A DNA stretch of 63,940 nucleotides, filler included, from an uncultured Methanosarcinales archaeon (lineage in GTDB: Archaea > Nanobdellota > Nanobdellia > Woesearchaeales > JAGLXL01), in assembly GCA_964472345.1 (NCBI GenBank). It is 5 parts of 5 records of this genome, joined end to end, with 100 filler letters (N's around TTAATTAATTAA, not from the genome) between each part and the next. Parts side by side here need not be neighbours in the genome. Positions count along the whole stretch, not along the records: positions 1 to 14,046 come from CAYYLB010000031.1; 4 more parts are not named here. One strand, 5' to 3'. Below, in pieces: positions 1-14,046 of the stretch; position 1 is the first letter of the stretch; each line of letters starts with the position of its first letter. Both the position numbers and the translations under genes were made by a program. Below the pieces are notes generated by a model. That model was not told the DNA's origin. It saw nothing but the letters and a program-made list of their open reading frames with translations, and ran no database searches.

Positions 1-862
1 GTGAAGCGAAGACCCCGTGAAACTTTACTGTAGCTTGCTGCTGTGACGCGAGTTCTGGTGCCTAGCGTACGTGGGAGCCGTTATGCGCATGCTTCCGGGT
101 GTGCGATAGGCGACAATGTAACACCACGTACCAGGGTTTGCGTTGCTCACTTCCGCAAGGAAGGACACCAGTAGGCGGACAGTTTGGCTGGGGTGGCACC
201 CTGCTGAAAACATATCAGTAGGGCCCAAAGGTCGGCTCACCTCGGTCAGAAATCGAGGGTTGAGTGCAAAGGCAAAAGCCGGCCTGATTGGATTCCCCTT
301 AGAGCGGAATCCAAGGACGAAAGTCTGGCTTAGCGAACTCCTGTGTCCTCATTAATGGGGGCCAGGAATGACCGAAAAGTTACTCCGGGGATAACAGAGT
401 CGTCGCGCCCGAGAGTTCCCATCGACGGCGCGGTTTGCTACATCGATGTCGGCTCATCCTATCCTGGCCGTGCAGAAAAAGTACCGCAGAGAAATCTGTT
501 GTACAAGCTGTAGGCGGCCAAGGGTGGGGGTGTTCACCCATTAAAAGGGTTCGTGAGCTGGGTTCACAACGCTGTGAGGCAGTTGGTTTGATATCTATTG
601 GAGATGCGTGGTGTCTGAAAGGAAGGGTCCCTTAGTACGAGAGGAACGGGGGCTCGGCGCCTCTGGTCTACCGGTTGTCTGACAAGGCAGGCCGGGCAGC
701 TACGCGCTACGGGATAAATGCTGAAAGCATCTAAGCATGAAACCCCCCTTGAAAAGAGACACCGTAGGACACCGCAAGAAGAGCGGCTTGATAGAACCGA
801 TGTGTACGCACCAAGCTTCGGCGAGGTGTTCAGCATGCGGTCACTAACGTCCATCTTTCTGG
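1..862 (+). rRNA. 23S rRNA, 3' part (domains V-VI), archaeal type; 3' end approximate
   Basis: Conserved motifs GAAGACCCCGTG, GGGATAACAG, CATCGATGTCGGCTC, GAGCTGGGTT, sarcin-ricin loop AGTACGAGAGGAAC and GCTGAAAGCATCTAAG. No 5S gene follows. Confidence 0.97.
478..513 (+). other. Putative 36-nt BHB-like intron in 23S rRNA helix 91
   Basis: Extra sequence with a GAAA-capped hairpin. Removing it restores CCTGGCCGTGCAGAAGCGGCCAAGG. Confidence 0.65.
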
Positions 863-984
863 CCTTTCTGCCTGCGCGGTTTTCATTTTTTTTCTTGGTT
901 TTACTCAGGCACAGACTGCCTAACTGCGTTGCGTAAGCGATACTTATCAGAAAAGTATAAAACCCACCTCACGCACCCCCACCT

Positions 985-1539
985 ATGAACGTTGATTGCT
1001 CAAACTGAGTACATACTCCGCAGCTTGCTGCGATTTATAGTTACTCAGTTTGAGGCTTAAAAATCCCCACAGCTTGCTGTGGCTGGGATTTTTAATACAA
1101 GAAGCTTGAAATTTGGCATCTTGCGTATCACTTTGTCATGGACATCTATAAAGCCGTAGAAAAATTTCCGAAATTCGAAGAGAATAATATCACTTCTCAG
1201 CTGCGCCGTGCGGCAACGTGCCTGCCTCTGAATATCGCAGAGGGAAGTGGGGCACGCTCACCGCGGATTTTCCTCAACTATCTTATATTTGCGTACCGAT
1301 CCGTGCGGGAAACAGAAACGCTGCTGATGCTCAGCCGGGACCTCAACTACCTTCCCCAAACGAGGTATGAGGAACTGAATGGGAAGCTTGAGCTTTTTGC
1401 CAAGAAGCTTTATCGCTTTATGGATTACCTGGAGAACGACGTCATCAAAACAAAAAGAAAACGGGATCTCACCTTTTTCTTCCGCCAGCAGAAGGATGCA
1501 CTGATCGGGAAGCGGGAGGAGATGGACCGGTTGGCCTGA
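985..1539 (+). pseudogene. Four-helix-bundle protein (23S rRNA IVS-protein family) interrupted near its start by a twin-hairpin insert
   Basis: TATA-like AAAAGTATAAAA about 25 nt before ATG985. In-frame YKKLEIWHLAY...FPKFE...SQLRRAA...NIAEG resumes at 1096. The insert carries in-frame stops. Confidence 0.8.
997..1095. repeat. Twin-hairpin palindromic insertion
   Basis: 13-bp IR 999-1011/1042-1054 and 11-bp IR 1057-1067/1085-1095, each enclosing a CAGCTTGCTG palindrome. Confidence 0.85.
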
Positions 1540-1636
1540 GTTGGTTTGTGGAGAGAGTGCCGGCGCGGCTGCCTGCGCGGTTTTCATTTTTTCTTTTTGC
1601 GCCCGCTCCCGCCAGCGGCTTTTGACAAACAGCTTC

Positions 1637-3355
1637 TCAGGCAGGCTCATCGCCGCCATGCCCCAGCTCCTTTGCCATGTACGCCCCTTCCTTCCGGTAG
1701 CCGAGCCTGCGGTAATATTCCCGTGCCCCGACGCCGGAGATGACCAGCATCCTGCGCTTGCCGTGCTCCCGCGCGATCTCTTCCGCCTTTGCCATGAGCT
1801 GCTTTCCCAGGCCGCGGTGCTGGGCTGCGTTTTGCGTACTCTCTTCGCCGATGGCGGTAGCCGTCCCATAGACATGCAGCTCGCGGACGAGCGCCGTTTT
1901 CTCCGTGATCTCCGGCCGCAGCTGCTGCGAGGGAAAGCGAAGCCTGCAGAAGCCGAGGATAAGATCATTTTTTGCGTCGTCAGCGGAAATGAAGAATTCC
2001 TGCCCCCCGCCGGCTTCGTAGGAGAGGACATTCATCTTTATTGCGCTGAAATCGACAGCCTTTCCCATCGGCTCGCGGCAGCGGATGCACCGGCATGCGG
2101 GCTTGTAGCGCTCGTGGATGTACTGCCGGAGATTGGTGAACTCCACGCCGGACGCCCACATTTTTGTCGGCACGTCGCGCTGGATGCGCTGGACGCGGCA
2201 GTAGCGCGGGACAAACTGTTTCATGGCCACGATGCGCTGCGCTGCCTGGTCTGCGGTGAGCGGCGTGAACCTGCCTTGCTTCCATTCGTGGTAGAGCGCG
2301 GTGCCGGGAGCGACCATGCAGGGGTAGATCTTGAGCATGTCCGGCCGGTAGTCATGGCTGTCAAAGAGCTCCCTGAAGCCTGCGAGGTCGCGCTGCTCAC
2401 CGGTCAGCGGCAGGCCGGGCATGTAATGCGCGCTGATCTTGAAGCCGAGGTCGCGGAGGGTGCGGAAGCTTTTCTTTGTATCGCTGCTGTCATGGCCGCG
2501 GTGCGTGTGCTTCAGGACATCGTCGTAGACGCTCTGCACGCCGATCTCGACGCGCGTGCAGCCCTGCGCGAGCATGCGGTTGCCGTGCTCCAAAAAGCCC
2601 CAGTCCGGCTTGCTCTCGATGCACAGCGCGACGCAGCGGATCCTTGCGGTTTCGTTTCTTGTTTTTTCTTGTTCTAATGTCATTTGTTTTTTTTGTTTTA
2701 TTTGAAGGAGTTTTTCGTGGATGTGTTCTGTCCGTTCTTTGCTGCCCACTTCACCGGGAAGCTCAAAGAACTCTTTAAAAAAGTCAAAATCAAAATCACC
2801 ATCCGGATAAAACATCTCGGAGAAATCATTCATCGCCTTGAATGCGTCCCTGATAAAATCATTCTGGTAGCTTTCCGGAAGCGCAGGGAACGTGCCGCCC
2901 ATGACAATAAGCTCTATCTTATCGCAGTTGTGCCCGAGGATGATGTATTGCTCAAGGCGATTGAAGACCTGCAGGTAGCTGTCGTAATTGTTGCGAATGG
3001 CGCGCATGGTGGTGGGCTCGTGTCCTGTATAACTCTGGGGCACGCTGCCATAATAGCTATTAGGGCCGCCTGGGCAGAAGGTGCAACGGCCGTGACTGCA
3101 CGGGAAAGGTGCCGCCATTATTGCTACTGGTGCTACACCAGAATTAGTGCGTATTGGCTTAGTTTGTAACTTTGTTTTGTAAATAGACATTTCACCTTTG
3201 GGCACATTCAGAAGTAATTCGATATTTGTTGGTACTTGTTTTATTTTATAATTTATTGTTGCGTTTCGCTTTATTTTGTCAAGGGCTTTAGGTGTGAGTT
3301 TGTCTCTTTTATTTATCTCTTGCAAGATAATTTTTATAGCTTCTTCTCTTGTCAT
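1637..3355 (-). CDS. elp3: Elp3, tRNA uridine(34) acetyltransferase (radical SAM + KAT)
   Basis: CSHGRCTFCPGG, MGGTF, EIGVQS, LKIYP, VRELHVYG and QHRGLG motifs. Confidence 0.95.
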   Translation of the reverse strand: MTREEAIKIILQEINKRDKLTPKALDKIKRNATINYKIKQVPTNIELLLNVPKGEMSIYKTKLQTKPIRTNSGVAPVAIMAAPFPCSHGRCTFCPGGPNSYYGSVPQSYTGHEPTTMRAIRNNYDSYLQVFNRLEQYIILGHNCDKIELIVMGGTFPALPESYQNDFIRDAFKAMNDFSEMFYPDGDFDFDFFKEFFELPGEVGSKERTEHIHEKLLQIKQKKQMTLEQEKTRNETARIRCVALCIESKPDWGFLEHGNRMLAQGCTRVEIGVQSVYDDVLKHTHRGHDSSDTKKSFRTLRDLGFKISAHYMPGLPLTGEQRDLAGFRELFDSHDYRPDMLKIYPCMVAPGTALYHEWKQGRFTPLTADQAAQRIVAMKQFVPRYCRVQRIQRDVPTKMWASGVEFTNLRQYIHERYKPACRCIRCREPMGKAVDFSAIKMNVLSYEAGGGQEFFISADDAKNDLILGFCRLRFPSQQLRPEITEKTALVRELHVYGTATAIGEESTQNAAQHRGLGKQLMAKAEEIAREHGKRRMLVISGVGAREYYRRLGYRKEGAYMAKELGHGGDEPA

Positions 3356-4152
3356 CGTTGATTTATTACCTCTTTAATTCTTTTGGCTATGTCTTTTGCC
3401 CAGCTTTCCTGGAATTCTGTGAACAGTATATTACAGTTCAGCTCACGGCATTCTGGAAGAAGCTCTTTAATATGCTCATAGTCTGCCCATCTCTTATCAA
3501 GTACCACAAAACCATATAAGTCACTTTTGTTTTCAGCTTTTTTTCTAACACATGCTCTGTAAGTATCAAATATATGAGCGCGAATGTTCCCGCCGATCGG
3601 TTGGTGTCTAAAATTAGGTGTCCTGCTCTTCTGAGACGGCGCCAACCTTGTTATTTCTACAGTCATTTCTGAATCTTTATACTTACCAAAAATATCAAAT
3701 TTCGAAGTGTAGGGGGTCATAATCCTATCGGGGAGTTCTACTCCGAGATTTTTAATTTCCTTGGCGAGTTCTCCGGCATCCTCATCTGGATAGAGATCAA
3801 ATAGTGATAGGCCAAACTCCTGCGGTTTTAATATAACAAGCGTCATAAAGCTTTTTCTAGAATTGCTGGTGATTAGATTATTTTCGTTAGCTGTTAAAAT
3901 ACTTCTGCCAGAAATGCAAACGGCCAATTCGCGGGATCGCGGCTTTAGAATATTGCCACCTAAGTTTTTTGTTATCCTAAACAGTTTACCTTCTCGTAAT
4001 ATGATTACCCTTGTTTCTTTTTCACGTAGAAAATCAGCAAGCCTTCTTGAGTTTATCATTAGGTAGAATGTTTTGTTGCTCGGTCTGTACCTCACATACC
4101 CTGATAAAAGAGCTTGTTGCTCCATATTCTTGTTTATAACATGTTCATTCAT
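3352..4152 (-). CDS. AT-rich hypothetical protein with a probable C-terminal PD-(D/E)xK nuclease-like domain
   Basis: FDIFGKY...TVEIT pattern. SD-like AAGGTGA upstream. Stop codon overlaps the elp3 start (ATGA). Confidence 0.6.
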   Translation of the reverse strand: MNEHVINKNMEQQALLSGYVRYRPSNKTFYLMINSRRLADFLREKETRVIILREGKLFRITKNLGGNILKPRSRELAVCISGRSILTANENNLITSNSRKSFMTLVILKPQEFGLSLFDLYPDEDAGELAKEIKNLGVELPDRIMTPYTSKFDIFGKYKDSEMTVEITRLAPSQKSRTPNFRHQPIGGNIRAHIFDTYRACVRKKAENKSDLYGFVVLDKRWADYEHIKELLPECRELNCNILFTEFQESWAKDIAKRIKEVINQR

Positions 4153-4294
4153 ACTCAATCACCTTCTCAACCATCTTGGAAGGTGATTGAGTACGAATAT
4201 GCTGTGAGGTACAACACTTGAGCTTGAGGAGCTGGCGCTGGCCGGGATTGCTGGCCTTGATTTCTTCGATGAGGGTGGTGTAGGGGGGACACAT
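4145..4294 (-). other. Short leader ORF: GC-rich 26-codon putative original elp3 5' stub fused to a foreign tail
   Basis: CTTATAAA box about 25 nt upstream of ATG4294. MCPPYTTLIEEIKASNPGQRQLLKLK parallels Elp3 IILQEINKRDKLTPKALDKIK. Confidence 0.5.
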
Positions 4295-4417
4295 GCTCGT
4301 GCGGGAAGCGTTTTGGTTTATAAGGGTTGGTATATTCAATCAGAAGTCGGCTAATTTTTGGATGGGGCAGTTTTCCTTTCGTAACATTTATGAACTTCTA
4401 TAATCACACAATTAGAT

Positions 4418-5167
4418 ATGGGGAAAATTGTTATAATCGGTGGAGGAGAAATTGGCGATTATGAAACTCTTCCTTTTGACAAAAGAATAGTTGAACTTAC
4501 AGGAAAGAAACATCCCAGAGCATTATTTATTCCAACCGCTAGTGGCGAACCAGATGGATATATTAAAACATTCAATAAAGTTTATGGCAAAAAATTGGGT
4601 TGTAAAACAGATGTTCTTTATTTACTCAAAACAAAACCAACAAAAGAAGAACTCAGACGAAAAATTCTTTCTTCAGATTTAATTTATGTTGGTGGTGGCA
4701 ACACATCAAAAATGATGATGAGATGGCGCTTTCTTGGAGTTGATAAAATTTTAAAAGAGGCATACAAACAGGGAATTATTCTGTCTGGCATAAGTGCCGG
4801 TGGAATTTGTTGGTTTGAGGCAGGCCATAGCGATTCTATGAGTTTTTATCATCCTAACAATTGGGATTATATTAAAGTAAGAGGTCTGGGTTTACTTAGG
4901 GGCATTCATTGCCCGCATTTTAATGGTCAAACAAGAGGAATAAAAAGAAGAAAGAATTTTTCTAATTTTATGAAAAAATATTCGGTGGTTGGAATAGCGA
5001 TAGATAATCATTGTGCTATTGAATTTGTTGATGGGAAATATAAAATTCTCACTGCAAAAAAAGACAGAAAAGCATACAGAGTATTCAAAAAAAGAAATAA
5101 AATCATGATTGAAGAAATACTGAAAAAGGACAATTATATGCTAATTTCTTTACTATATAAAAAATAG
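4418..5167 (+). CDS. Peptidase S51 family (peptidase E / cyanophycinase-like), AT-rich
   Basis: IIGGG, FIPTAS, IYVGGGNT, GISAG nucleophile elbow, CPHF. Confidence 0.9.
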   Translation: MGKIVIIGGGEIGDYETLPFDKRIVELTGKKHPRALFIPTASGEPDGYIKTFNKVYGKKLGCKTDVLYLLKTKPTKEELRRKILSSDLIYVGGGNTSKMMMRWRFLGVDKILKEAYKQGIILSGISAGGICWFEAGHSDSMSFYHPNNWDYIKVRGLGLLRGIHCPHFNGQTRGIKRRKNFSNFMKKYSVVGIAIDNHCAIEFVDGKYKILTAKKDRKAYRVFKKRNKIMIEEILKKDNYMLISLLYKK

Positions 5168-5356
5168 GAAAACTGCCCCTCGACGTAATCATCTGATTGG
5201 ACTTCGTCCTTGATACACCGACTTCTGACTTTGATTTTTTCCTCCGCTTCGCTACGGAACGTTGCACTAAAAATCAATCCCTGATGGGAGAATATAACCG
5301 CGATCGCATTAGTTCCCGAAAAAGAAAAAGAGGTATGCCTTTCCTTTTTCACGGCG

Positions 5357-6331
5357 TCAGAAGCTGAGGACGACCTCCACGATGAGATAGGCGCAGTAGA
5401 GCCCGATGGTGAGCAGCCCTTGCTTCCAGGTCACCCAGCCCCGCCCCATGAAGAAAAGGACGAGCCCCAGCGCAAGTGCGAGCACCGCTGCGCTCAGCGC
5501 GATGACGCTGAAATCGATGGCGAGCGGCACCACGAGCGCGAGGACGCCGAGGAAGAGCAGCTGCTTGGCGAGCGTGCTGCCGAGAAGGTCGCCCATGCCG
5601 ACGTCCTTGTGCCCCTGAAGCTCGGAGCGGATGATGACGATGAGATCAGGCACCTGCGCGCCGATGCCGAGAATGACGGCTGAGACAATGAATGTCGAGA
5701 TGCCGATCTGCTGCGACAGTTGCGTGACGCCGAATATCAGCCAGCGTGCACTGAGCAGCAGCGCGCCGAGCGCAAGGATGAAGATCAGGCCGTCCTTCCA
5801 GATCGACTCGAGCCGGACGCGGCGGCGGAGGCTGCCCGACTTCTCCTCATTTTTCCAGAGGAAGATAAGGTACGCGGCGTAGGCAGCGACGAGCAGGCCG
5901 CCGTCAATGCGCGAAAGCCGGCCATCGATGACCAGTGCCAGGGGCAGCAGCGTGATGATGAAGACCAGCAGGCGGACGTTCTCGAAGAGCTTGCTGCGGA
6001 TATCCAGCTTCTTCCCGATGAGCGCCATGATGCCGAGCACGAGCGTCAGGCCGCCGATGTTCGAGCCAAGGATGGTGCCGAAGACGATCTCGTGGTCGCC
6101 CAGCGAAGCGCCGGTGATGGCAGAGACCAGCTCCGGGAACGATGCGACGATGGCGATGACCACCAGCCCGGTGATGTAGTCGCTCAGCCCGATGCGCCGG
6201 GCGTAGCGCGTGACGCCATAGAGGAGCATGTCGGAGCTCTTGATCAGCAGCGCAAGGCTCGCAATAATCACAATGGAGAGGAACGCCTTGGGATGGCCTG
6301 CGGCAAGCCCCTGGATCAGCTGGAGCACCAT
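5357..6331 (-). CDS. Na+/Ca2+ exchanger (CaCA, YrbG-like)
   Basis: Two alpha repeats (ASFPEL...GTILGSNI; AQVPDL...GDLLGS), multiple TM helices. Confidence 0.88.
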   Translation of the reverse strand: MVLQLIQGLAAGHPKAFLSIVIIASLALLIKSSDMLLYGVTRYARRIGLSDYITGLVVIAIVASFPELVSAITGASLGDHEIVFGTILGSNIGGLTLVLGIMALIGKKLDIRSKLFENVRLLVFIITLLPLALVIDGRLSRIDGGLLVAAYAAYLIFLWKNEEKSGSLRRRVRLESIWKDGLIFILALGALLLSARWLIFGVTQLSQQIGISTFIVSAVILGIGAQVPDLIVIIRSELQGHKDVGMGDLLGSTLAKQLLFLGVLALVVPLAIDFSVIALSAAVLALALGLVLFFMGRGWVTWKQGLLTIGLYCAYLIVEVVLSF

Positions 6332-8995
6332 CTACGCCTCCGTGCGCCGCGAGCGCAGGTATTTCGCAAGCTCGAGGTAGAAGAACCCGCTGCTTGCGAC
6401 GATTGCGACGAGCAGGAATTCCGCTCCGCTGAGCGCATGCGTCTGGAAGATTGCGCGGAGCGCAGGGATGGTGATGATGGCGACGCAGATGGCAAGCGAG
6501 AGCAGCACGGCGAGGATCAGGGAGAAGTTCCTGAAGAGCCCGACCCGCAGCGCCGGAAAGCGTGTTGAGCGCGAGGCAAACGCCTGAAAGAGCTCGAAGA
6601 GCGCGAGCGAAAGGAATGCGACAGTCTGCGCATGCGCGAGGTTGCCGCTCTGCCGGTAGGTGTAGGTGAACAAGGCGAGCGTTGCAACAATGAGGATGAC
6701 CGGGTACCAGATGATGAACGGCTCCAGGCCGGCGGTGATAGGCTCTTTCTGCTCGCGCGGCTTGCGCGTCATGGCTCCCGGCTCGAATGGATCGACGCCC
6801 AGGGCAAGCGCGGGGAGCATGTCGGTGACAAGGTTGATCATGAGGATCATGCTTGCGCTCAGGGGCAATGGCAGTCCGATCAGCATCGCGCCGAAGATGA
6901 CGCCGATCTCGCCAAGGTTGCCGGAAATGAGGAACGCGAAGAACTTCTTGATGTTGTCGTAGACGCCGCGGCCTTCTTCGACCGCGTCGACAATGGAGGT
7001 GAAGTTGTCATCGGTGAGGACCATGTCGCTCGCTTCCCTGCTGATATCGGTGCCCGTCACGCCCATGGCGACGCCGATGTCCGCTTTCTTCAGCGCGGGC
7101 GCGTCGTTCACCCCGTCGCCAGTCATCGCCACGGTGAGGCCGCGCGCCTGCAGCGCATCAATGATCGTGAGCTTGTGCTCCGGGTCCACGCGGGCGAAGA
7201 TGCCTATCTGGCCTATCCGTGAGCGGAGCTCTTCCGCTGAGAGCTTCTCGAGCTCCTGGCCCGTGATGGCCGTTCCCTCAATGCCGATCTCGCGCGCAAC
7301 GGCAAGCGCCGTCGTCTGGTGGTCGCCGGTGATCATGAGCACCCTGATTCCTGCGCTCTTGCATTTTGCGATGGAGTCTTTCACCTCGGGGCGCGGCGGG
7401 TCGATCATGGCCTGCAGGCCGATGAAGATCATCTCGTTCTCGAGCTCCGCGGTGCGCAGTGCTCCCTGGCCAGCCTCAGCGTACGCGAACGCGATCACGC
7501 GCAGCGCCTCGCGGGCGAACTGCTCGTTTGCCTGCAGGATCTGCTGCTTCCGCTCGCGCGTCAGGCGCTCCGCGCGGCCGTGCAGCAGGATGCGGTCGCA
7601 GCGCTCGAGCAGCACATCGGGCGCGCCTTTGCTGAAGGCGACGCGCTGGCTCCGGGTCTCGTGGAGCGTCGTCATGCGCTTGCGCTCGGAAGTGAACTCA
7701 AGCTCATCGATCCGGGGGTACTGGGCGCTGAGCTGATCATGGGAGAGGCCGGCTTTCCCTGCGCTGACGAGCAGCGCGCCCTCGGTCGGGTCGCCGATGA
7801 CGCTGCGCTGGCCGTTTTCCTCATGGATGCGCGCGTCGTTGCACAGCATGCCGATCTTCAGCAGCAGCTGCAGCGAAGGGTGCTTCTGCGTGTCGAGCTC
7901 CCTGCCACCCTGCGAAAAGACGCCCGTAGGGCTGTAGCCTGAGCCGCTCACATCGATGATCATGCCATCAACGAGGACCCTGCGGACAGTCATCTCGTTG
8001 TGCGTCAGGGTGCCGGTCTTGTCGGTGCAGATGACGGAGACGCTGCCGAGGGTTTCCGCGCTTGCGAGATTGCGCAGCAGGGCGTGGCGCTTGATCATCC
8101 GCTGCGTGCCGACGGCGAGCGCAATCGTAACGACAGCAGGCAGTCCTTCGGGAACCGCAGCGACCGCGAGGGAGACTGCGACGAGGAACATCATCAGCAG
8201 GGGCTCGCCGCGCAGCGCCCCCAGGCTGAAGGTGAGGATAATGATGATCACGGCGGCGGCGCTCATCCATTTGGCGAGCTGCGCGAAGCGCTTCTGCAAA
8301 GGCGTAGGCTCCTGCACCTCTTTCTGCAGCCCTCCAATCCTGCCGAATTCGGTCGCCATGCCTGTTGCGGTGACGACCGCTTTTGCACGGCCGCGCGTGA
8401 TGATCGTGCCGGCGTAGAGCATGCTTGCCCGGTCAGCGAGCGCCGCGCTCTGGGGAGCTGCCTTGCTGTCCTTGCCCACGGGCGTGCTCTCTCCGGTCAG
8501 CACGGCTTCCTGGGTCTGCAGGTGGTGCGCTTCGATGAGCCGCGCGTCCGCTGCGGCCTTGTCGCCGGTTTCGAGGGCGAGGATGTCGCCAGGGACGACG
8601 TTGCGGCTTTCAATCTCGATGAGCTGCCCATTGCGGAGGACAGCCGAATGCGACGCGGTGAGGCGCTTCAATGCGGCGATGGCGCGCTCGGCCTTGTACT
8701 CCTGGATAAAGCCAAGGATCGCATTGATGATGATAATGGCTGCGATGACCAGTGCGTCGACGGCTTCGCGCAGGAACGCGGAGATGAGCACCGCAGCAAT
8801 CAGGATCCAGATCAGGGGACTGTTGAACTGCCGGAGAAAGAGCCTTGCTGCCGGAACCGGCTTTTCCTCACGGAGCTCGTTCACGCCGTACTGGTGCAGG
8901 CGATGCTCCGCTTCCTCGCTGCTCAGGCCTTGATGGGGAGAAACATTGAGCTGCGCAAGGACTTCCGCTGCCTCACGGGCGTATGCGTCATTCAT
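6332..8995 (-). CDS. P-type IIA (Ca2+-transporting) ATPase; start could be 9019
   Basis: TGES, PEGL, DKTGTLT, KGAP, DPPR and TGDGVNDAP motifs. Confidence 0.95.
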   Translation of the reverse strand: MNDAYAREAAEVLAQLNVSPHQGLSSEEAEHRLHQYGVNELREEKPVPAARLFLRQFNSPLIWILIAAVLISAFLREAVDALVIAAIIIINAILGFIQEYKAERAIAALKRLTASHSAVLRNGQLIEIESRNVVPGDILALETGDKAAADARLIEAHHLQTQEAVLTGESTPVGKDSKAAPQSAALADRASMLYAGTIITRGRAKAVVTATGMATEFGRIGGLQKEVQEPTPLQKRFAQLAKWMSAAAVIIIILTFSLGALRGEPLLMMFLVAVSLAVAAVPEGLPAVVTIALAVGTQRMIKRHALLRNLASAETLGSVSVICTDKTGTLTHNEMTVRRVLVDGMIIDVSGSGYSPTGVFSQGGRELDTQKHPSLQLLLKIGMLCNDARIHEENGQRSVIGDPTEGALLVSAGKAGLSHDQLSAQYPRIDELEFTSERKRMTTLHETRSQRVAFSKGAPDVLLERCDRILLHGRAERLTRERKQQILQANEQFAREALRVIAFAYAEAGQGALRTAELENEMIFIGLQAMIDPPRPEVKDSIAKCKSAGIRVLMITGDHQTTALAVAREIGIEGTAITGQELEKLSAEELRSRIGQIGIFARVDPEHKLTIIDALQARGLTVAMTGDGVNDAPALKKADIGVAMGVTGTDISREASDMVLTDDNFTSIVDAVEEGRGVYDNIKKFFAFLISGNLGEIGVIFGAMLIGLPLPLSASMILMINLVTDMLPALALGVDPFEPGAMTRKPREQKEPITAGLEPFIIWYPVILIVATLALFTYTYRQSGNLAHAQTVAFLSLALFELFQAFASRSTRFPALRVGLFRNFSLILAVLLSLAICVAIITIPALRAIFQTHALSGAEFLLVAIVASSGFFYLELAKYLRSRRTEA

Positions 8996-9179
8996 CGGTA
9001 CCTGCTTCCCTTCCCGCAAGATTGAGGAGAAGGCTCTCTCTGCAGAGCTCAGCCGTCATATTTATAATCTTCGCTTGGGCGGCTTAGCAGAAAAGTGGCC
9101 GTCACACACCCATTACTTATCAGATAGTGATACCATACCACACTTTTTATAAACCTGAGCATCGCTTCGGTGCGTGCCT

Positions 9180-10499
9180 ATGAGAAAGCCTTCCGACAAG
9201 AATCGCCTAATGGAAAGATTGGTTGAGCAAGGCCTGCCGCCGGCAGAGATTGCCCGAAGAGCGGAAGTTTCGTATAGGACTGCGTATGAGCTTGCTGTAG
9301 CGCGACGGAAAAAGTATCCTTCCTACTATGATTATTTGGCAGAGAAGAAAGTTGAATCGGACCCCGAGTTCGTGAAATTTTTAGATGGACAGCCCCCATC
9401 AGGGCGCCTCTACAAAACATATGCATTTCAGCGACAGCTTAAGCGAATGGGTCTTTCACACCCCGAATACAGGGACTCCTTGGCTAAGGGAATGGCAGAA
9501 AAAGACCCGGGGTACAGGAGATTTCTCGGTGAAAGAGGCACGCCCCCTTCACAATGGACACGCAAGCAATATTTACTTTTCAGAGAGGGGACTACAGATA
9601 CTAAGCATAAAGTTACCCTGGCCCGGCGAAAAGCTAAATCAGACCGCTATTTTAAAGCATTTTTGCGAAGGGAAAACATCCAACCATCGGCAGCCACTTA
9701 TGGACAATATCAGGCCTATCAGGCGGCGCAAAGGCAGCAACGGCTTCCAAACAAAATCATAAGCATGGTGATAACCGCGAGGCTCGGCGCATTGGGCAGG
9801 GATCAGAGGTGGCTTGCGCACTACCTTGGGCTCACCGATGCGGCTGTCTCGAGGTATGCCAAGGGCAAAACTACTCCAAGGGGGGGGCTGCAGCCAAGGT
9901 TATTTGAGGCGCTGGAACTGCCATACCAGACGATAGACGCGCTGGTGAAAGATCTCACGGAATGCCCACCAGCGCAACTTGCTGGGAAACTGGGCTCCCT
10001 GGGCATCGCGGAGGGACGTGAGGGTGGGGAAGGACTGGAGGGTATCCTTGATGAAGGCGTTGGAGAGTCGCCAGCAGCGTTGCTCGAAAAAATCCACTCA
10101 AAAGCGAAAAAAGCTGCGGCGGAAAGCAGGCAAGGCGCTAAAGCTTATAGCAGGCAAGGCGCTGAACCGGCACCCATCGACCTGCTCGTGGGCTGGCTGA
10201 TAAGCGCAAAGTCCCGTGCACAAAAAATGACGCCGGAAGAGCTGGCCCGCGAGTTGGGGATACCGGAGATGAAGCTTTATGCCTACATCGGTGGCTGGCT
10301 TCCCAGCGGTAAGATGCAACCACTCCTGTTTAAGGCGCTCGGTTTGCCCTACACCGCGGTTGGCGGGATTGCAGAAGACATTGAACGATACCCGCTGGAG
10401 GCCCTCCTTGAAAAATGGGGGTTAAACGACGAAGCAACTGAGACCATTACTGCATTGAAAGGGCTTCTGGGCAGGTTGAGAGGTAGTGCCCCCTATTGA
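9180..10499 (+). CDS. Multi-HTH protein: N-terminal HTH, three internal repeats, two XRE-like domains
   Basis: GLPPAEIARRAEVSYRTAY; QRWLAHYLGLTDAAVSRYAKGKTTP; TPEELARELGIPEMKLYAY. Confidence 0.75.
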   Translation: MRKPSDKNRLMERLVEQGLPPAEIARRAEVSYRTAYELAVARRKKYPSYYDYLAEKKVESDPEFVKFLDGQPPSGRLYKTYAFQRQLKRMGLSHPEYRDSLAKGMAEKDPGYRRFLGERGTPPSQWTRKQYLLFREGTTDTKHKVTLARRKAKSDRYFKAFLRRENIQPSAATYGQYQAYQAAQRQQRLPNKIISMVITARLGALGRDQRWLAHYLGLTDAAVSRYAKGKTTPRGGLQPRLFEALELPYQTIDALVKDLTECPPAQLAGKLGSLGIAEGREGGEGLEGILDEGVGESPAALLEKIHSKAKKAAAESRQGAKAYSRQGAEPAPIDLLVGWLISAKSRAQKMTPEELARELGIPEMKLYAYIGGWLPSGKMQPLLFKALGLPYTAVGGIAEDIERYPLEALLEKWGLNDEATETITALKGLLGRLRGSAPY

Positions 10500-10661
10500 C
10501 TTTGGGAAGTGGGTGAAGCGGTTTCGATCAGAGTTTTCTTTGGCCTTCTACACGTTGAGATCTCTTCTTTGCGTATGGGTGATGGGTGTTTTTCATAGGG
10601 TTTTTACCAAACCCCGAATATACCCCATTTGATAACTTAAAACCCAAAAGTCCAGATACGA

Positions 10662-11675
10662 GATACTGTCAAATAATGGGGATATTTATATATAAGCTCG
10701 TTCTTTAAAGTCTTAAAAAAGGGGTGCAGACATGGCGTCTTTCAACTGTCCAAAATGCGGCGATGCCGACATTGTGAAAAGAGGAAAAAGAAAAAATAAT
10801 GATAGTGTAAAGCAGAGATACCGATGCAACGGCTGCCGCTCAACTTTTGTTGAGCCAGATGGCTTTGAGCGGATGCGGCACAGGCCTGAAGACATCACGC
10901 GGGCGGTCCATCAGCACAACGATGGGTTTTCGCTTTTTCAGGTTAAGTACCACCTCCACCAGCATGATGATGTGGAAGTGAGCCGTGAAGCAATCAGGCT
11001 GTGGTGTAAAAAATATGGGGTTTTTTTAAAATCCACTCCACAAAGAAGTAAAGCCAAAACTGAAAGGGCGGCAGCACCTTGATGAGAAATACATCAAAGT
11101 GAATGGGGAAGACTGCTATGATTTGAATTGCATCGATGCAAAAACAAAGTATATTACGGCCAATCTCTTCGTGCATAAACGCACAATTAAAAGATGTGTT
11201 AGTTTTCTTTCGCAGATTAAAGAAACATGCTATGAGCAGATACTCGAAATCTACAAAAAAGAGAAACACAAACCAAAAGACAAGAAAAAGCTCATCACGT
11301 TTGTCAGCGACAAATTTTGGAATTACAAAACGGCGTGGAGCATACTTTTTTCTCGCGTTACCAAACTGGTGTTTGGTGTTCCGATCGCCTGCCGCAAATA
11401 CGGATTAAAACACAACAACAATCCAATTGAGCGATACAATGGAAAGACGAAAGACCGAACGAAAGTTATCCGGGGCGGATTCAAAAGTTTTAAAGGAGCG
11501 GAATGCTTTTTGAACTTAAGGCGAGTGGTTCATAATTTTGTGAATCCACATCAAGGACTGGATGGAGGGACGCCATCAGAAGCAGCTGGAATTAAGCTCC
11601 CTTTGGATCGAAACAGGCTTCTAAGCCTTATCAAATTTGTCGCGAGAACCCGTATCCCGAAAAGATGACAGTATC
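10662..11675 (+). mobile_element. Insertion sequence, IS1/IS6-like DDE element, 1014 bp
   Basis: 10-bp terminal IR GATACTGTCA/TGACAGTATC. 9-bp target duplication CAGATACGA at 10653-10661 and 11676-11684. Confidence 0.9.
10732..11668 (+). CDS. Transposase split in two frames: Zn-ribbon/HTH ORF A (10732-11082) and DDE ORF B (to 11668)
   Basis: CPKC...YRCNGC in ORF A. HLDEKY, VSDK and NNPIER in the +1 frame. Confidence 0.85.
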
Positions 11676-11726
11676 CAGATACGAAAAAGTTAATAAAGAG
11701 CATCGCACCTGTATTAGGAAAAAGGG

Positions 11727-14046
11727 ATGAAGATGGGGATAGGACGGCAATTACGGGAGTTTGATGGATTCGCTGCGCTTCTTCTCCCCGGCCAAGGTCT
11801 TGTGGGGCTTGTCGTAGGACAAGAAGTTGGCATCCAAGCGACAGTATCTGCTTGCCAGGAGATTAGTACCAGCGATACCTACAGCCTTACTGTGGATGTC
11901 AGCAATGACAGCAACTGCTTTCGCCTTACTGCGGATAATATTGACCTTGATTGTGATGGGTATACTATCAAGTATGCCAACTCCAGCCAAGGGCAGGGAG
12001 TCGTCGCCGCAAACGTGAAGAACGCAACCATCAGGAACTGTGTCATCATCGACAGCAATGAGTCGAATGCGAACGGAATCGCCATCAACCTGACCAACGC
12101 AAGCGGAAGCGCCGCCGTCAACAACACGCTCCAGACCAACGGGACGAGCAACAACTGGGGCCTGCTGCTCACCCGCTCCGCGAACGCCACCATCGCAAAC
12201 AACACCATCCGGACGCGCGGGAGCGCAGCATCCAACTATGGCATCTATGCGCTCACCGCAGTCAGCGGAAGCCGCTTCACCGGCAATGTCATCACCACCA
12301 ATGGCACGTCTTCGAATTACGGCATCTACTTCGCTGCGGGAGCGAGCAACAACTCCGTCTCGAACAACTCTGTCACTGCCGGAGGAAGGACAAACCTGAA
12401 TGTCGGAATCTTCATTGAGAATGCCATCGAAAACAACGTGAGCCACAATTCTATCGTCGCCAATGGGACGGACAGCAACTATGGGATCACTTTGGGCGGC
12501 AACGCGAACGAAACGCGCGTCGTGAACAACACCATCGCGACCGGCGGCACTTCAGACAGCAACTATGGCATCGTCCTGAGCGGAGGCACCAACTACCGGA
12601 ATGCCATCGCGGGAAACCGCGTCACGACCAACGGGACAACGGCGAACTCAGGGATGCTCATCTCTTCGCTAAGCAACACCATCAGCAACAACACCATCGT
12701 TGCCCAGGGAGCCTCGGCAAGCCATGGGATCGAGCTTGCGAAAGCATCGAACAACAATGTCTTCATCCAGAACAACATCACGGTCAATGGGGCGGAGAAC
12801 TATGGCTTTTACATCGACGGCTCGAACGGCACCGTCCTGAACACGACGGTGTTTTTTGACACGCAGAGGTGGCTCTTCGTGAACTCGCTGTCAGCCAATA
12901 CCACCCTGGCGAACACCACGTTCTGGACGGGGAATGGCAGCATCCGCTTTCATGGCACCATCCTGCTGAACACCTCCGTTGCTGCGGCAAACGCGACGCG
13001 GCAGAACCTCAACGTAACAGTGAACAACGCAAGCATTAATGTCACCAACCTTCCGTCCCTGAACGCCACCGCGACCATCACATTCTTCGGCATCACCTTC
13101 ACCGACCCGCAGCCGCTCGTTGACCCTGAGGATGACGGGAGCTTCACGAGCTGCACCAGCACCACCGACCCTGCCTGTGAGGAGCTCAGCTTCTCGGGCA
13201 ATGTGTTTGTTTTCAACGTAACGCACTTCACCACCTATTCGTCCCAGGATGACACGACAGCCCCTCAAATCAACATCACTTCTCCGGCAAACATGACTGT
13301 TGTTGGAGCAAACTTCAACATCACCGAGAACATCACGGAGAGCAGCCTTGATTATGTTATCTATGAAGTAAAGAATGGCAGCGGCAACGTGTCGCAGTGG
13401 ATCAACCAGACCAACCAGACGGGCATTAAATGGACGAGCCTGATCAGCATCAGCGGGCCGCAGCTGGCGGAAGGCACGTACACCATCGTGAAGAACGCAA
13501 CGGATGCCGCAAACAACGTGAACGTCTCCTCCGTCAATTTCGTCGTCGATACCACCGCTCCTGCCATCAACATCACCTCCCCCGCCAACAACTCCTTAAA
13601 CAACACCAACTTCAACATCAGCGAGAACATTACCGATGCGAATCTCGACTATGTGATTTACAACATCACCAACGGAACTGGAAACGTCACGCAGAACATC
13701 AACCAGACCAACCAGACCATTGACCTCTGGACAAGCCTGATCAACGTCAGCGCGCTTGCAGATGGCACATACAACATCACCAAGCGCGCGGTGGATGCGG
13801 CAGGCAACGCGGCGCAGGCCGTGGTGGGATTCCGCGTGGACGCCACCGCCCCGGCGCTTTCCGGCGCTGCCGCAACCGGCGTCACCAGCAGCAGCGCGGT
13901 GCTTGAGGTGACAAGCAATGAGGCAGCGACGTGCCGGTATGATGTGTCCGACATTGACTATGCGTCCATGACGCTTGCGTTCGACACGACCGGCGGCACC
14001 AGCCACAGCACGCAGGTCGCCGGCCTCAGCGCAGGCACAACCTATG
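11727..14046 (+). CDS. Surface glycoprotein with parallel beta-helix and Ig-like repeats; 3' truncated by contig end
   Basis: NNTI..T.G...NYGI repeats, two DTTAP.INITSPAN Ig domains, many N-x-S/T sequons. Confidence 0.85.

Follow-up and report, generated by a model that had tools for sequence, protein, structure and literature searches.

In a 63,940-nt stretch of archaeal DNA, hereafter the window (assembly GCA_964472345.1, from an uncultured Methanosarcinales archaeon that GTDB places in the Woesearchaeales), a gene for a 266-aa nuclease-like protein lies within the 5' end of elp3. We read this arrangement as an intron-less and intein-less homing cassette in elp3, a 5' mirror of the mORF gene hybrids of fungal mitochondria, and put the probability of this reading at about 0.72. 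In it, a mobile cassette of 1.1 kb (3086/3119-4216) would have replaced native elp3 codons 27 to ~80-90. The cassette would consist of a hairpin-masked leader, the gene for the 266-aa protein with its predicted PD-(D/E)xK fold, and a diverged copy of elp3 codons 1-~79. The native promoter and the first 26 codons would have been left upstream as a stub open reading frame (ORF), and the incoming N-terminus would continue in frame into the native radical-SAM/GNAT body, giving a complete, chimeric Elp3. An earlier note on this DNA had proposed that a selfish free-standing endonuclease invaded elp3, and that proposal is supported in its main lines. The minus-strand layout on which it rested (TATA box, GC-rich stub, AT-rich tail, 266-aa ORF, ATGA overlap and complete elp3) was recovered in full, each element at the same positions (Table 1). 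Positions 1-14046 of the window are one contig of a 1.26-Mb archaeal metagenome-assembled genome of 120 contigs, and the bases past 14046 are other contigs or N.

The stub and the empty site

To judge from its similarity to the Elp3 of related genomes, the stub is the native start of elp3. The Elp3 N-termini of these kin start with M-x-I-Y-x-E-L-I-x-E-I-K...L-K-R-x-L-C, and the stub, MCPPYTTLIEEIKASNPGQRQLLKLK, aligns with them from residue 2-4 on. Local alignment gives z-scores of 8.5 for G015, 6.8 for G002 and 5.2 for G007, with none of 500 shuffles as good, so that the resemblance to Elp3 N-termini which the earlier note had asserted holds. That note had, however, lined the stub up with the N-terminus that the window's Elp3 carries at present, and here the local alignment finds no match (z -0.4); it is the N-termini of the relatives that are matched instead.

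The composition of the locus changes abruptly along its length. The 26 codons of the stub have a GC content of 0.59 and a GC content at third codon positions (GC3) of 0.85, and the neighbouring native genes have a GC3 of 0.82-0.87 (0.83-0.87 for those of a Na/Ca exchanger and an ATPase). The rest of the stub ORF (4216-4148) stands at 0.39, the 266-aa ORF at 0.36 and elp3 codons 1-79 at 0.24 overall (0.21-0.31 along the stretch). Further downstream, GC3 is 0.66-0.73 over codons 80-165, 0.35-0.49 over codons 166-240 and 0.76-0.90 over codons 241-560 (0.82 for codons 241-572 as a whole). The second dip, at 2636-2860, is probably not part of the cassette import: the protein it encodes is as close to kin as elsewhere (62-74%), GC3 also drops at codons 166-240 in the nearest kin, G005 (0.26-0.38), and a contig of metagenome run X5, described below, matches it at 98% identity. 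Of the AT-rich regions singled out in the earlier note, therefore, the first ~80 codons of elp3 stand as imported, while the patch at 2650-2880 is real but probably not an import. Codons 80-240 may or may not come from a low-GC kin donor: their GC3 tracks that of G005, but the identity at synonymous codons is no higher than downstream. Over the same codons, G003, a genome of the same family, shows no extra similarity to the window.

The strongest evidence for an insertion comes from alleles of the same site that lack it. In G002 and G005, the closest relatives with usable contigs, genes for a P-type ATPase and a Na/Ca exchanger are followed by an uninterrupted elp3, with 32-44 nt between exchanger and elp3, and the window has the same flanks. 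We also matched public Logan metagenome contigs to window positions 1000-6400. An 819-nt contig (record 28) from run X5, a groundwater metagenome of another study than the runs in which the window's own sequence occurs, matches 5580-5359 (12 differences), 4274-4217 and 3085-2821 (34 differences). Its joints run from 5359 to 4274 and from 4217 to 3085, the latter skipping 1131 nt. The contig thus reads from the Na/Ca exchanger gene over a short spacer and the stub sequence (codons 7-26) straight into the body of elp3 from codon 91, without a cassette. Between the outer anchors it measures 332 nt against 2,273 nt in the window, a length that fits an uninterrupted 90-codon start plus a spacer of ~60 nt. 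Read from its joints and anchor spacing, the X5 contig is an empty-site allele, and together with G002 and G005 it provides the empty counterpart, in related genomes, of the site that is filled in the window. The left break at 4217 coincides exactly with the composition switch that the earlier note had named, and the right junction is bounded to 3086-3119 by GC3 and by the limit of the aligner. As a separate observation, another X5 contig (record 27) covers 2645-2819 at 98% identity (4 differences in 175 nt), whereas the X5 contigs flanking this stretch differ from the window by 7-13%, which hints at a separate, recent exchange of the low-GC3 segment of elp3.

The N-terminus and the body of Elp3

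Elp3 of the window is complete. All four of its Pfam families score above their cut-offs, with ELP3_N covering residues 4-70, and it is 50-74% identical to the Elp3 of 29 of 31 relatives. The two ends of the protein nevertheless differ in how they relate to kin. Over residues 1-66, the window is 27-35% identical to G002, G005 and G007, against 53-66% among these kin themselves; over residues 241-405, it is 84% identical to kin, against 84-88% among them.

Phylogenetic trees give a similar picture. Of the 36 rows in the N-terminal tree (66 columns), 12 are set apart from the other 24 by a branch supported at 96/94, and these 12 are ten of the twelve cassette-linked alleles, including that of the window, together with G019 and G022. 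The label 'cassette' needs three changes on this tree, and none of 500 label shuffles needs as few. In the body tree (residues 241 to the end; 33 rows, the partial rows L053-L055 being left out), the window groups with the cassette-free kin G005, G002 and G007 at a Shimodaira-Hasegawa-like approximate likelihood ratio (SH-aLRT) of 99, and the label needs seven changes for nine carriers, a count that 99-113 of 500 shuffles equal. By composition and identity, then, codons 1-79 are foreign, and they group with other cassette-linked N-termini, pointing to a transfer of flanking host sequence together with the nuclease-like gene, with the caveat of a topology test discussed below (p 0.19).

Among alleles without the nuclease-like gene, that of G003 (another genus of the same family; L030, 1605-3285) has the Elp3 N-terminus nearest to the window's, with 35 of 66 residues identical and a sister position at SH-aLRT 87. 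Its elp3 directly follows the ATPase gene, with no exchanger or nuclease-like gene at that place; an apparent frameshift in it coincides with a run of 10 N. With G003 added, the cassette label needs five changes on the N-terminal tree, and again none of 500 shuffles is as low. Two origins can be considered for G003, G019 and G022: the nuclease gene may have been lost from these alleles while the imported N-terminus stayed, or they may represent source lineages. A donor search with Elp3 residues 1-80 returned two matches at 51%, of which P0107, compared in full, is of the cassette-free type, and yielded no donor.

One further difference lies just inside the body. The Pro of the radical-SAM motif C-x-x-C-P-G-G (residue 95 in the window, ~3071-3073) is present in 24 of 24 cassette-free alleles and in 4 of 12 cassette-linked ones; at this position G110 has Cys and its cassette-free sister G182 has Pro. 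This difference may relate to target or immunity, or may reflect shared descent. Sequence-based attempts to locate the target site of the nuclease gave leads only.

Recurrence upstream of elp3

In a phylum sample, 9 of 401 genomes contain the nuclease-like gene (six strong and three weak, distant matches), and in an order sample 3 of 401 do, both counts taking in the window's own genome. Scans of whole collections with a nine-row family alignment added four genome loci and nine metagenome loci and no viral ones; the viral contigs scanned encode no relative of the ORF. With duplicates removed (L047 and L051 equal G062, L048 equals G149, L050 equals L046) and with L052, L057 and L058 left out, since they end inside the gene or were not examined, the comparison covers 12 distinct loci. 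In all 12, elp3 lies directly downstream on the same strand, which lends further support to the earlier note's reading. The nuclease stop overlaps the elp3 start or lies at most 4 nt from it in ten of them, elp3 starts being chosen by alignment. The nuclease frame is intact in 11 loci and has an in-frame TAA in the remaining one, G352. Carriers span several families and two orders, and both the counts in the 401-genome samples and the label changes on the body tree show a sporadic distribution, unlinked to host phylogeny.

Just 5' of the nuclease-like gene, significant Elp3 N-terminal stubs were found in half of the 12 loci (window, G062, G149, G352, L046 and L053; z 6.6-17, no shuffle as good). 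The window, G149 and G352 combine a stub of the cassette-free type with a working N-terminus of the cassette-linked type, whereas G062, L046 and L053 have the cassette-linked type in both places, which suggests that the stub design arose by duplication within the cassette-linked lineage. In G060 and G110 the nuclease-like gene stands between an upstream gene and elp3 without a convincing stub, the upstream gene in G060 being a Na/Ca exchanger, as in the window. Weak possible stubs in L056 (z 4.4) and L055 (z 5.3) contain in-frame stops and were not counted, and a match in G110 was judged doubtful.

The 266-aa protein

No Pfam family scores above its cut-off in the 266-aa ORF, in any of the 15 members of its family, or in 28 of 95 distant relatives. 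The 15 were found at 41-100% identity in a collection of 5.8 billion proteins, where the three that carry a name are called 'hypothetical protein', and the 95 come from a profile search of 1.84 billion cluster representatives (E<=1e-3; only 12 at E<=1e-30). A sequence profile search of the PDB with the ORF gave one chance-level match, and a protein atlas placed it with a MunI-like cluster at 0.86, which we take as a lead only. The more distant relatives are longer, at 350-400 aa, with an extra N-terminal part. Two that were examined (L028, which is G182, 4355-5503 on the minus strand; and L029) lie directly 5' of Lhr-type helicase genes with DEAD_assoc and WH_Lhr Pfam matches, and such Lhr-linked, long relatives may represent the cellular origin of the cassette nuclease. 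In G182, the pair of distant relative and Lhr-type helicase gene stands divergently beside elp3.

An AlphaFold2 model from the single sequence was unusable, with a predicted local distance difference test (pLDDT) value of 40, and a model from the 15-row alignment (pLDDT 85.5) was used in its place. It shows a beta-rich N-terminal domain (~14-110), for which only a weak beta-barrel match was found (Z 5.3), and a PD-(D/E)xK-like C-terminal domain (~121-266). Structure alignment of residues 121-266 gives a Z-score of 9.4 with VC1899, 9.0 and 8.2-8.8 with Can2, 8.7-8.9 with Cdn1 and 7.6-8.2 with XisH, the best matched PDB entries being 1xmx (Z 9.4), 8q3y (9.0), 8z4i (8.7-8.9) and 2okf (7.6-8.2). 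BstEII (7.1), McrC (7.0), NucS (6.8) and MunI (6.7) follow, and there are further matches to Hjc and XPF. The top PDB rows of a Foldseek search are EndoMS/NucS, R2 endonuclease, SfsA, Bax1, Hef and Mus81 (best E 2e-3), and its named viral rows are restriction endonucleases and one intron endonuclease. The alpha-beta-beta-beta-alpha-beta core of this fold can be followed in the model, with a modest margin over Rossmann-like rows. As modelled, then, a PD-(D/E)xK nuclease-like fold is supported for the C-terminal domain, in agreement with the nuclease core that the earlier note had predicted.

The D...ExT motif corresponds to D153...E166-I-T168, in which D153 and E166 are invariant in all 15 sequences and T168 nearly so. 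Other invariant polar residues are N180, H183 and Q184, with R191 nearly invariant, and these residues might substitute for the Lys of the canonical motif. On the strength of the model, the ORF is a candidate free-standing homing endonuclease with a predicted nuclease activity.

Leader and translational coupling

Read from its ATG, each of the six stub ORFs (48-65 aa) stays open until its stop, which falls within -4 to +20 nt of the nuclease start. A MAFFT alignment of the six shows a shared leader block, ...TCTCAAGCATTTG...GAGGTGAT, and a GAGGTGAT-like Shine-Dalgarno site is common to the leaders. The hairpin in the window buries its Shine-Dalgarno site AAGGTGAT (4165-4158) together with the A of the nuclease ATG. 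Its RNA fold has an energy of -33.4 kcal/mol (z -8.2), and none of 200 shuffles is as stable. Among the other leaders, all of them folded as single sequences, those of G062, G149, G352 and L046 have the Shine-Dalgarno stretch paired at minimum energy (z about -2 each), and that of L053 has it unpaired. From this arrangement we infer that the stub may serve as a leader ORF: its translation would open the hairpin and be coupled to the nuclease start. At the other end of the nuclease-like gene, its TGA overlaps the elp3 ATG as ATGA (3355-3352), with GAGGT 10-14 nt 5' of the elp3 start. The chain of translational coupling that the earlier note had envisaged fits well with stub ORFs that end at the nuclease start and with a hairpin over the Shine-Dalgarno site.

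A TATA-like box of A and T is found at a similar spacing 5' of the stub ATG in each of the five stub loci with upstream sequence (window, G062, G149, G352 and L046). In the window, the TTATAAA would be the native elp3 promoter, kept in place, and its transcript would have a short leader or none. The idea that the leader derives from the Elp3 motif KPxRTxSGV, through an insertion near codon 73, was rejected, as 8-192 of 300 shuffles were as good over the six loci.

Discussion

How would such a cassette be expressed, and how would it move? The old elp3 promoter would drive a single transcript, on which ribosomes translating the stub would melt the hairpin, stop 6-8 nt past the nuclease ATG and re-start on the nuclease gene, a second re-start on elp3 following through the ATGA overlap. 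The nuclease would then cut cassette-free elp3 alleles within codons 27-90, since no other stretch is at once missing from the stub and supplied again as a diverged copy. The break would be repaired from a cassette-bearing genome, with the stub as left homology arm and the radical-SAM core as right arm. This route would lead to the structure seen in the window, in which a GC-rich native stub is followed by donor leader, nuclease gene, donor codons 1-79 and native body. Cleavage of uninvaded elp3 by the nuclease, and resistance of the replaced segment to it, are what the layout leads us to expect. Where the first stub came from is a matter of speculation: it might have come from one-sided repair with an intergenic form such as that of G060 as donor and a subsequent joining of ends. 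The in-frame TAA in G352 and the nuclease-free, cassette-type allele of G003 would be the stages of decay and loss that are expected of a homing cycle.

So what exactly is the role of the stub? We tentatively suggest, although we hold it to be somewhat less probable than its opposite, that the stub is a working part of the element: a leaderless leader ORF that, by unmasking the nuclease start, meters nuclease expression from the promoter of the host gene, and at the same time a left homology arm. With the recoded ELP3_N copy, it would make the cassette a self-contained element that swaps gene ends and is based on a nuclease family not recognised before. If true, the stub as left arm would make the cassette portable into any elp3, whatever lies upstream, and homing endonucleases would have a general route into essential archaeal protein genes that needs neither introns nor inteins.

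Several observations weigh against a homing cassette. The fold matches (Z <=9.4) stand only moderately above a Rossmann-like background of Z ~7, and Thr168 is found across the family where the (D/E)xK motif has Lys. The empty-site contig comes from a related organism, with 5-13% nucleotide differences, and not from the same population. G110 and L054 carry the nuclease-like gene yet have an N-terminus of the cassette-free type; conversely, a cassette-type N-terminus occurs without the nuclease gene in G003, G019 and G022. Even the closest relatives in the samples are distant, at 60% for the nuclease (P0002) and at 53% (G003) and 51% for the N-terminus. Furthermore, the N-terminal and body trees disagree on the placement of the window, so that this refuting condition of the earlier note, like those on the stub and on the fold, came out in the note's favour, but a grouping of the window with its kin is not rejected by an approximately unbiased (AU) test of the 66 N-terminal columns (p 0.19). 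Finally, strict linkage to elp3 and tightly coupled translation are also what a protein working together with Elp3 might show.

This last point leads to a reading that we think unlikely, in which Elp3 has a cellular partner or regulator in the 266-aa protein, for example a subunit of nuclease fold that binds tRNA or other nucleic acid. The operon of two genes, with the 5' part of elp3, would then have moved by ordinary horizontal transfer and homologous recombination, and the stub would be accidental. Elp3 directly downstream in 12 of 12 loci, stops and starts overlapping or nearly touching in 10 of 12 and a frame intact in 11 of 12 are all as one would expect of a partner, and with its catalytic Lys changed to Thr the protein could be a non-enzyme. 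Yet more than 97% of the sampled relatives, including the closest kin and the X5 strain, have elp3 without the nuclease-like gene, and the more distant relatives of the protein lie beside Lhr helicase genes and not elp3. A partner would also have no need for a second 5' gene end, whereas stubs occur in six loci and are of the native type in three lineages, and the broken copy in G352 and the nuclease-free allele of G003 suit the life cycle of a parasite better. Alternatively, the cassette may be mobile without being driven by a nuclease, if recombination between co-resident archaea, through natural transformation or cell fusion, swaps 5' segments of elp3 and the ORF, for example a defence or repair nuclease, is a passenger. 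The region does seem to take up foreign DNA anyway, as the nearby AT-rich S51 peptidase insert, absent from the empty-site contig and from kin, indicates; the window holds several AT-rich islands, and our sequence-based attempts found no target site. We nonetheless regard a passenger as improbable, given that the ORF occupies one position of one gene in 12 of 12 loci from several families and two orders, and that a kept leader, a masked Shine-Dalgarno site and a stub ending at the start codon look like an element built to express the ORF.

An artefact of assembly, in which reads of a GC-rich and an AT-rich organism were joined across a conserved part of elp3, might come to mind for a metagenome-assembled genome of 120 contigs with an abrupt composition switch inside a conserved gene. 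Such a chimera would, however, have to switch composition four times and include a native-type stub between the switches. Moreover, Logan contigs of runs X1, X2 and X4, which are from one study and may include the source sample, span both junctions with zero differences (Table 1), and the same layout is found in five other assemblies, which makes an artefact very improbable indeed.

A homing cassette in elp3 would have its closest known counterpart in the fungal mitochondrial mORF gene hybrids, which are listed for atp6 of Allomyces macrogynus, for atp6, atp9, cox2 and nad3 of Glomus sp., for atp9 of Rhizopus and for cox2 of Mortierella in the available excerpt of one paper (PMC3630166). According to the same excerpt, an endonuclease ORF moves there with a foreign carboxy-terminal segment that is expressed in frame, the native C-terminus being left downstream, and the Allomyces endonuclease, in work cited there, has been shown biochemically to drive mobility (PMC3630166). 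The elp3 locus has the same essentials: a duplicated gene end, with the foreign copy in frame and a native remnant, and a nuclease-like ORF between them. As in the hybrids, so far as the excerpt describes them, the ORF would travel with a foreign gene end and has the native remnant beside it, and the foreign and native ends fall at different places in trees (PMC3630166). Unlike in the hybrids, it is the 5' end and not the 3' end that is swapped, and the remnant keeps promoter and start codon and would find a new use as leader ORF. The element lies in an archaeal chromosome, and the protein has no Pfam match to the LAGLIDADG or GIY-YIG families but is a PD-(D/E)xK-like one without a Pfam family, known here from sequence and model. 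The earlier note had called such a layout unfamiliar from archaeal chromosomes. No such layout for archaea or elp3 came up in the titles and abstract openings on homing endonucleases that we searched, subscription journals lying outside the search, and on partial duplication with free-standing endonucleases the titles and abstract openings searched gave organelle work only; the fungal mitochondria provide a precedent at 3' ends.

At the 3' end of elp3, a second archaeal locus appears to resemble the fungal mORF arrangement. In G182 (L028), a 325-aa ORF (7567-8544, plus strand) begins 95 nt after the stop of elp3 (5820-7472) and ends in ...PLGYKRDGVYMSKKL, a near copy of the Elp3 C-terminal tail ...NLGYKRDGPYMSKKIC. 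Two LAGLIDADG-like motifs can be seen in it by eye, and it has no Pfam match. If the gene-end-swapping reading is true, this ORF would be the mirror case.

SegF of T4-like phages is reportedly an intron-less homing endonuclease, and mobE is said to split the nrdA of Aeromonas phage Aeh1. For the free-standing endonucleases of T4-like phages, such as SegB and MobE, the accessible portions of two papers describe intron-less homing from a gene beside the cut sequence, with co-conversion (PMC2790892, PMC2330249). The elp3 cassette would share with these Seg/Mob genes, as described in those portions, a proposed double-strand-break repair with co-conversion of flanks and a sporadic distribution. Seg/Mob genes, however, lie between genes and need synteny on both sides, whereas the elp3 cassette lies in a gene, brings its own gene end and, if the model is right, its own left homology arm; its setting is a cellular chromosome and not phage co-infection. 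Conserved genes with a homing endonuclease ORF inside and their function kept are known as split genes too, and 'fractured genes' with split inteins have been described (PMC2677866, as far as its accessible part goes). Split-gene hosts make two polypeptides, which are reassembled or trans-spliced, whereas a single full-length Elp3 is encoded here, the missing part being re-supplied 3' of the nuclease gene. With regard to the protein, the modelled C-terminal domain superposes on Can2/Card1, VC1899, Cdn1, XisH and NucS/EndoMS (Z 7.6-9.4; root mean square deviation 3.1-4.0 A over 115-120 residues) and, like Can2/Card1-type and related nucleases, has an acidic pair, D153 and E166, on consecutive strands. 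It differs from these nucleases by having no detectable sequence similarity to them, no CARF domain and a Thr in place of the motif lysine.

If our reading is correct, essential protein genes of archaeal chromosomes can house free-standing homing endonucleases by means of a spare gene end, a strategy so far documented for organelle genomes. The reading also explains a domain-sized ELP3_N mosaic in a core gene that would mislead single-gene phylogenies, and it flags short orphan ORFs 5' of such cassettes as gene remnants that may be re-used for expression. Furthermore, a small nuclease-like family without a Pfam name has been identified, whose members, if active, would probably recognise a long site within a conserved gene and might thus be of use as rare-cutting enzymes. 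Translational coupling and the homing cycle in ultra-small archaea could also be studied at this locus as a simple test case.

Features of the elp3 region

Table 1. Positions in the window of the elements of the elp3 locus and of metagenome contigs that span its junctions.
Feature	Position	Strand	Remarks and basis
TATA-like box TTATAAA	4323-4317	-	22 nt 5' of the stub ATG at 4294
Native remnant of elp3, first 26 codons (MCPPYTTLIEEIKASNPGQRQLLKLK)	4294-4217	-	GC3, similarity to kin, X5 contig
Stub ORF, 49 codons plus TGA (4147-4145)	4294-4145	-	Stop 6-8 nt inside the nuclease-like ORF
AT-rich linker, putatively cassette-borne; 5' leader of the nuclease-like gene	4216-4153	-	GC3 0.39, shared block, missing in X5 contig
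Perfect 15-bp hairpin, arms 4193-4179 and 4166-4152, 12-nt loop	4193-4152	-	Inverted repeat, 100% complementary
Nuclease-like gene, 266 aa	4152-3352	-	ORF; 268 aa if TTG at 4158 is the start
Putative replacement N-terminus of elp3, codons 1-79, ~ELP3_N	3355-3119	-	GC3, identity, tree; foreign part may reach 3086
Complete elp3, 572 aa	3355-1637	-	Pfam ELP3_N, Radical_SAM, Radical_SAM_C, GNAT
Native elp3 body, radical SAM, Radical_SAM_C and GNAT	3118-1637	-	Pfam, tree with kin, 84% identity
Low-GC3 patch in the native body, codons 166-240	2860-2636	-	GC3 0.35-0.49
Junction-spanning contig, X4 record 21	2879-3198		
Junction-spanning contig, X2 record 11	3042-3392		
Junction-spanning contig, X1 record 6	3760-4580		
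Junction-spanning contig, X4 record 23	3783-4533		

Upstream of the elp3 promoter, the window carries a gene for an S51 peptidase (4418-5167, plus strand; AT-rich, GC3 0.22) within 4340-5228, bracketed by inverted repeats at 4340-4350/5218-5228 and 4364-4377/5166-5179. It is absent from the X5 empty-site contig and is skipped by an X1 contig (joint from 4358 to 5195), and a homologue is present in 3 of 31 relatives, the window's own genome counted. With this gene, the DNA that separates the exchanger gene from the elp3 promoter holds a second insertion, distinct from the cassette. Next to it, the stretch 5163-5343 has a summed contig depth of 81-735 in all four metagenome runs, against ~5 beside it, and part of it occurs a second time in this genome (C35, 84% over 64 nt). 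It has no Rfam match at the gathering score, and 4300-5500 contains no tRNA gene; the stretch may be a repeat or a widely shared element.

At the start of the contig, the 3' end of an archaeal large-subunit ribosomal RNA gene occupies positions 1-866 and is followed, at 1138-1539, by a gene for a four-helix protein of the type found in 23S rRNA intervening sequences (PF05635). More AT-rich islands lie elsewhere in the window, at ~11-12, 28-29, 40-43 and 54-55 kb.

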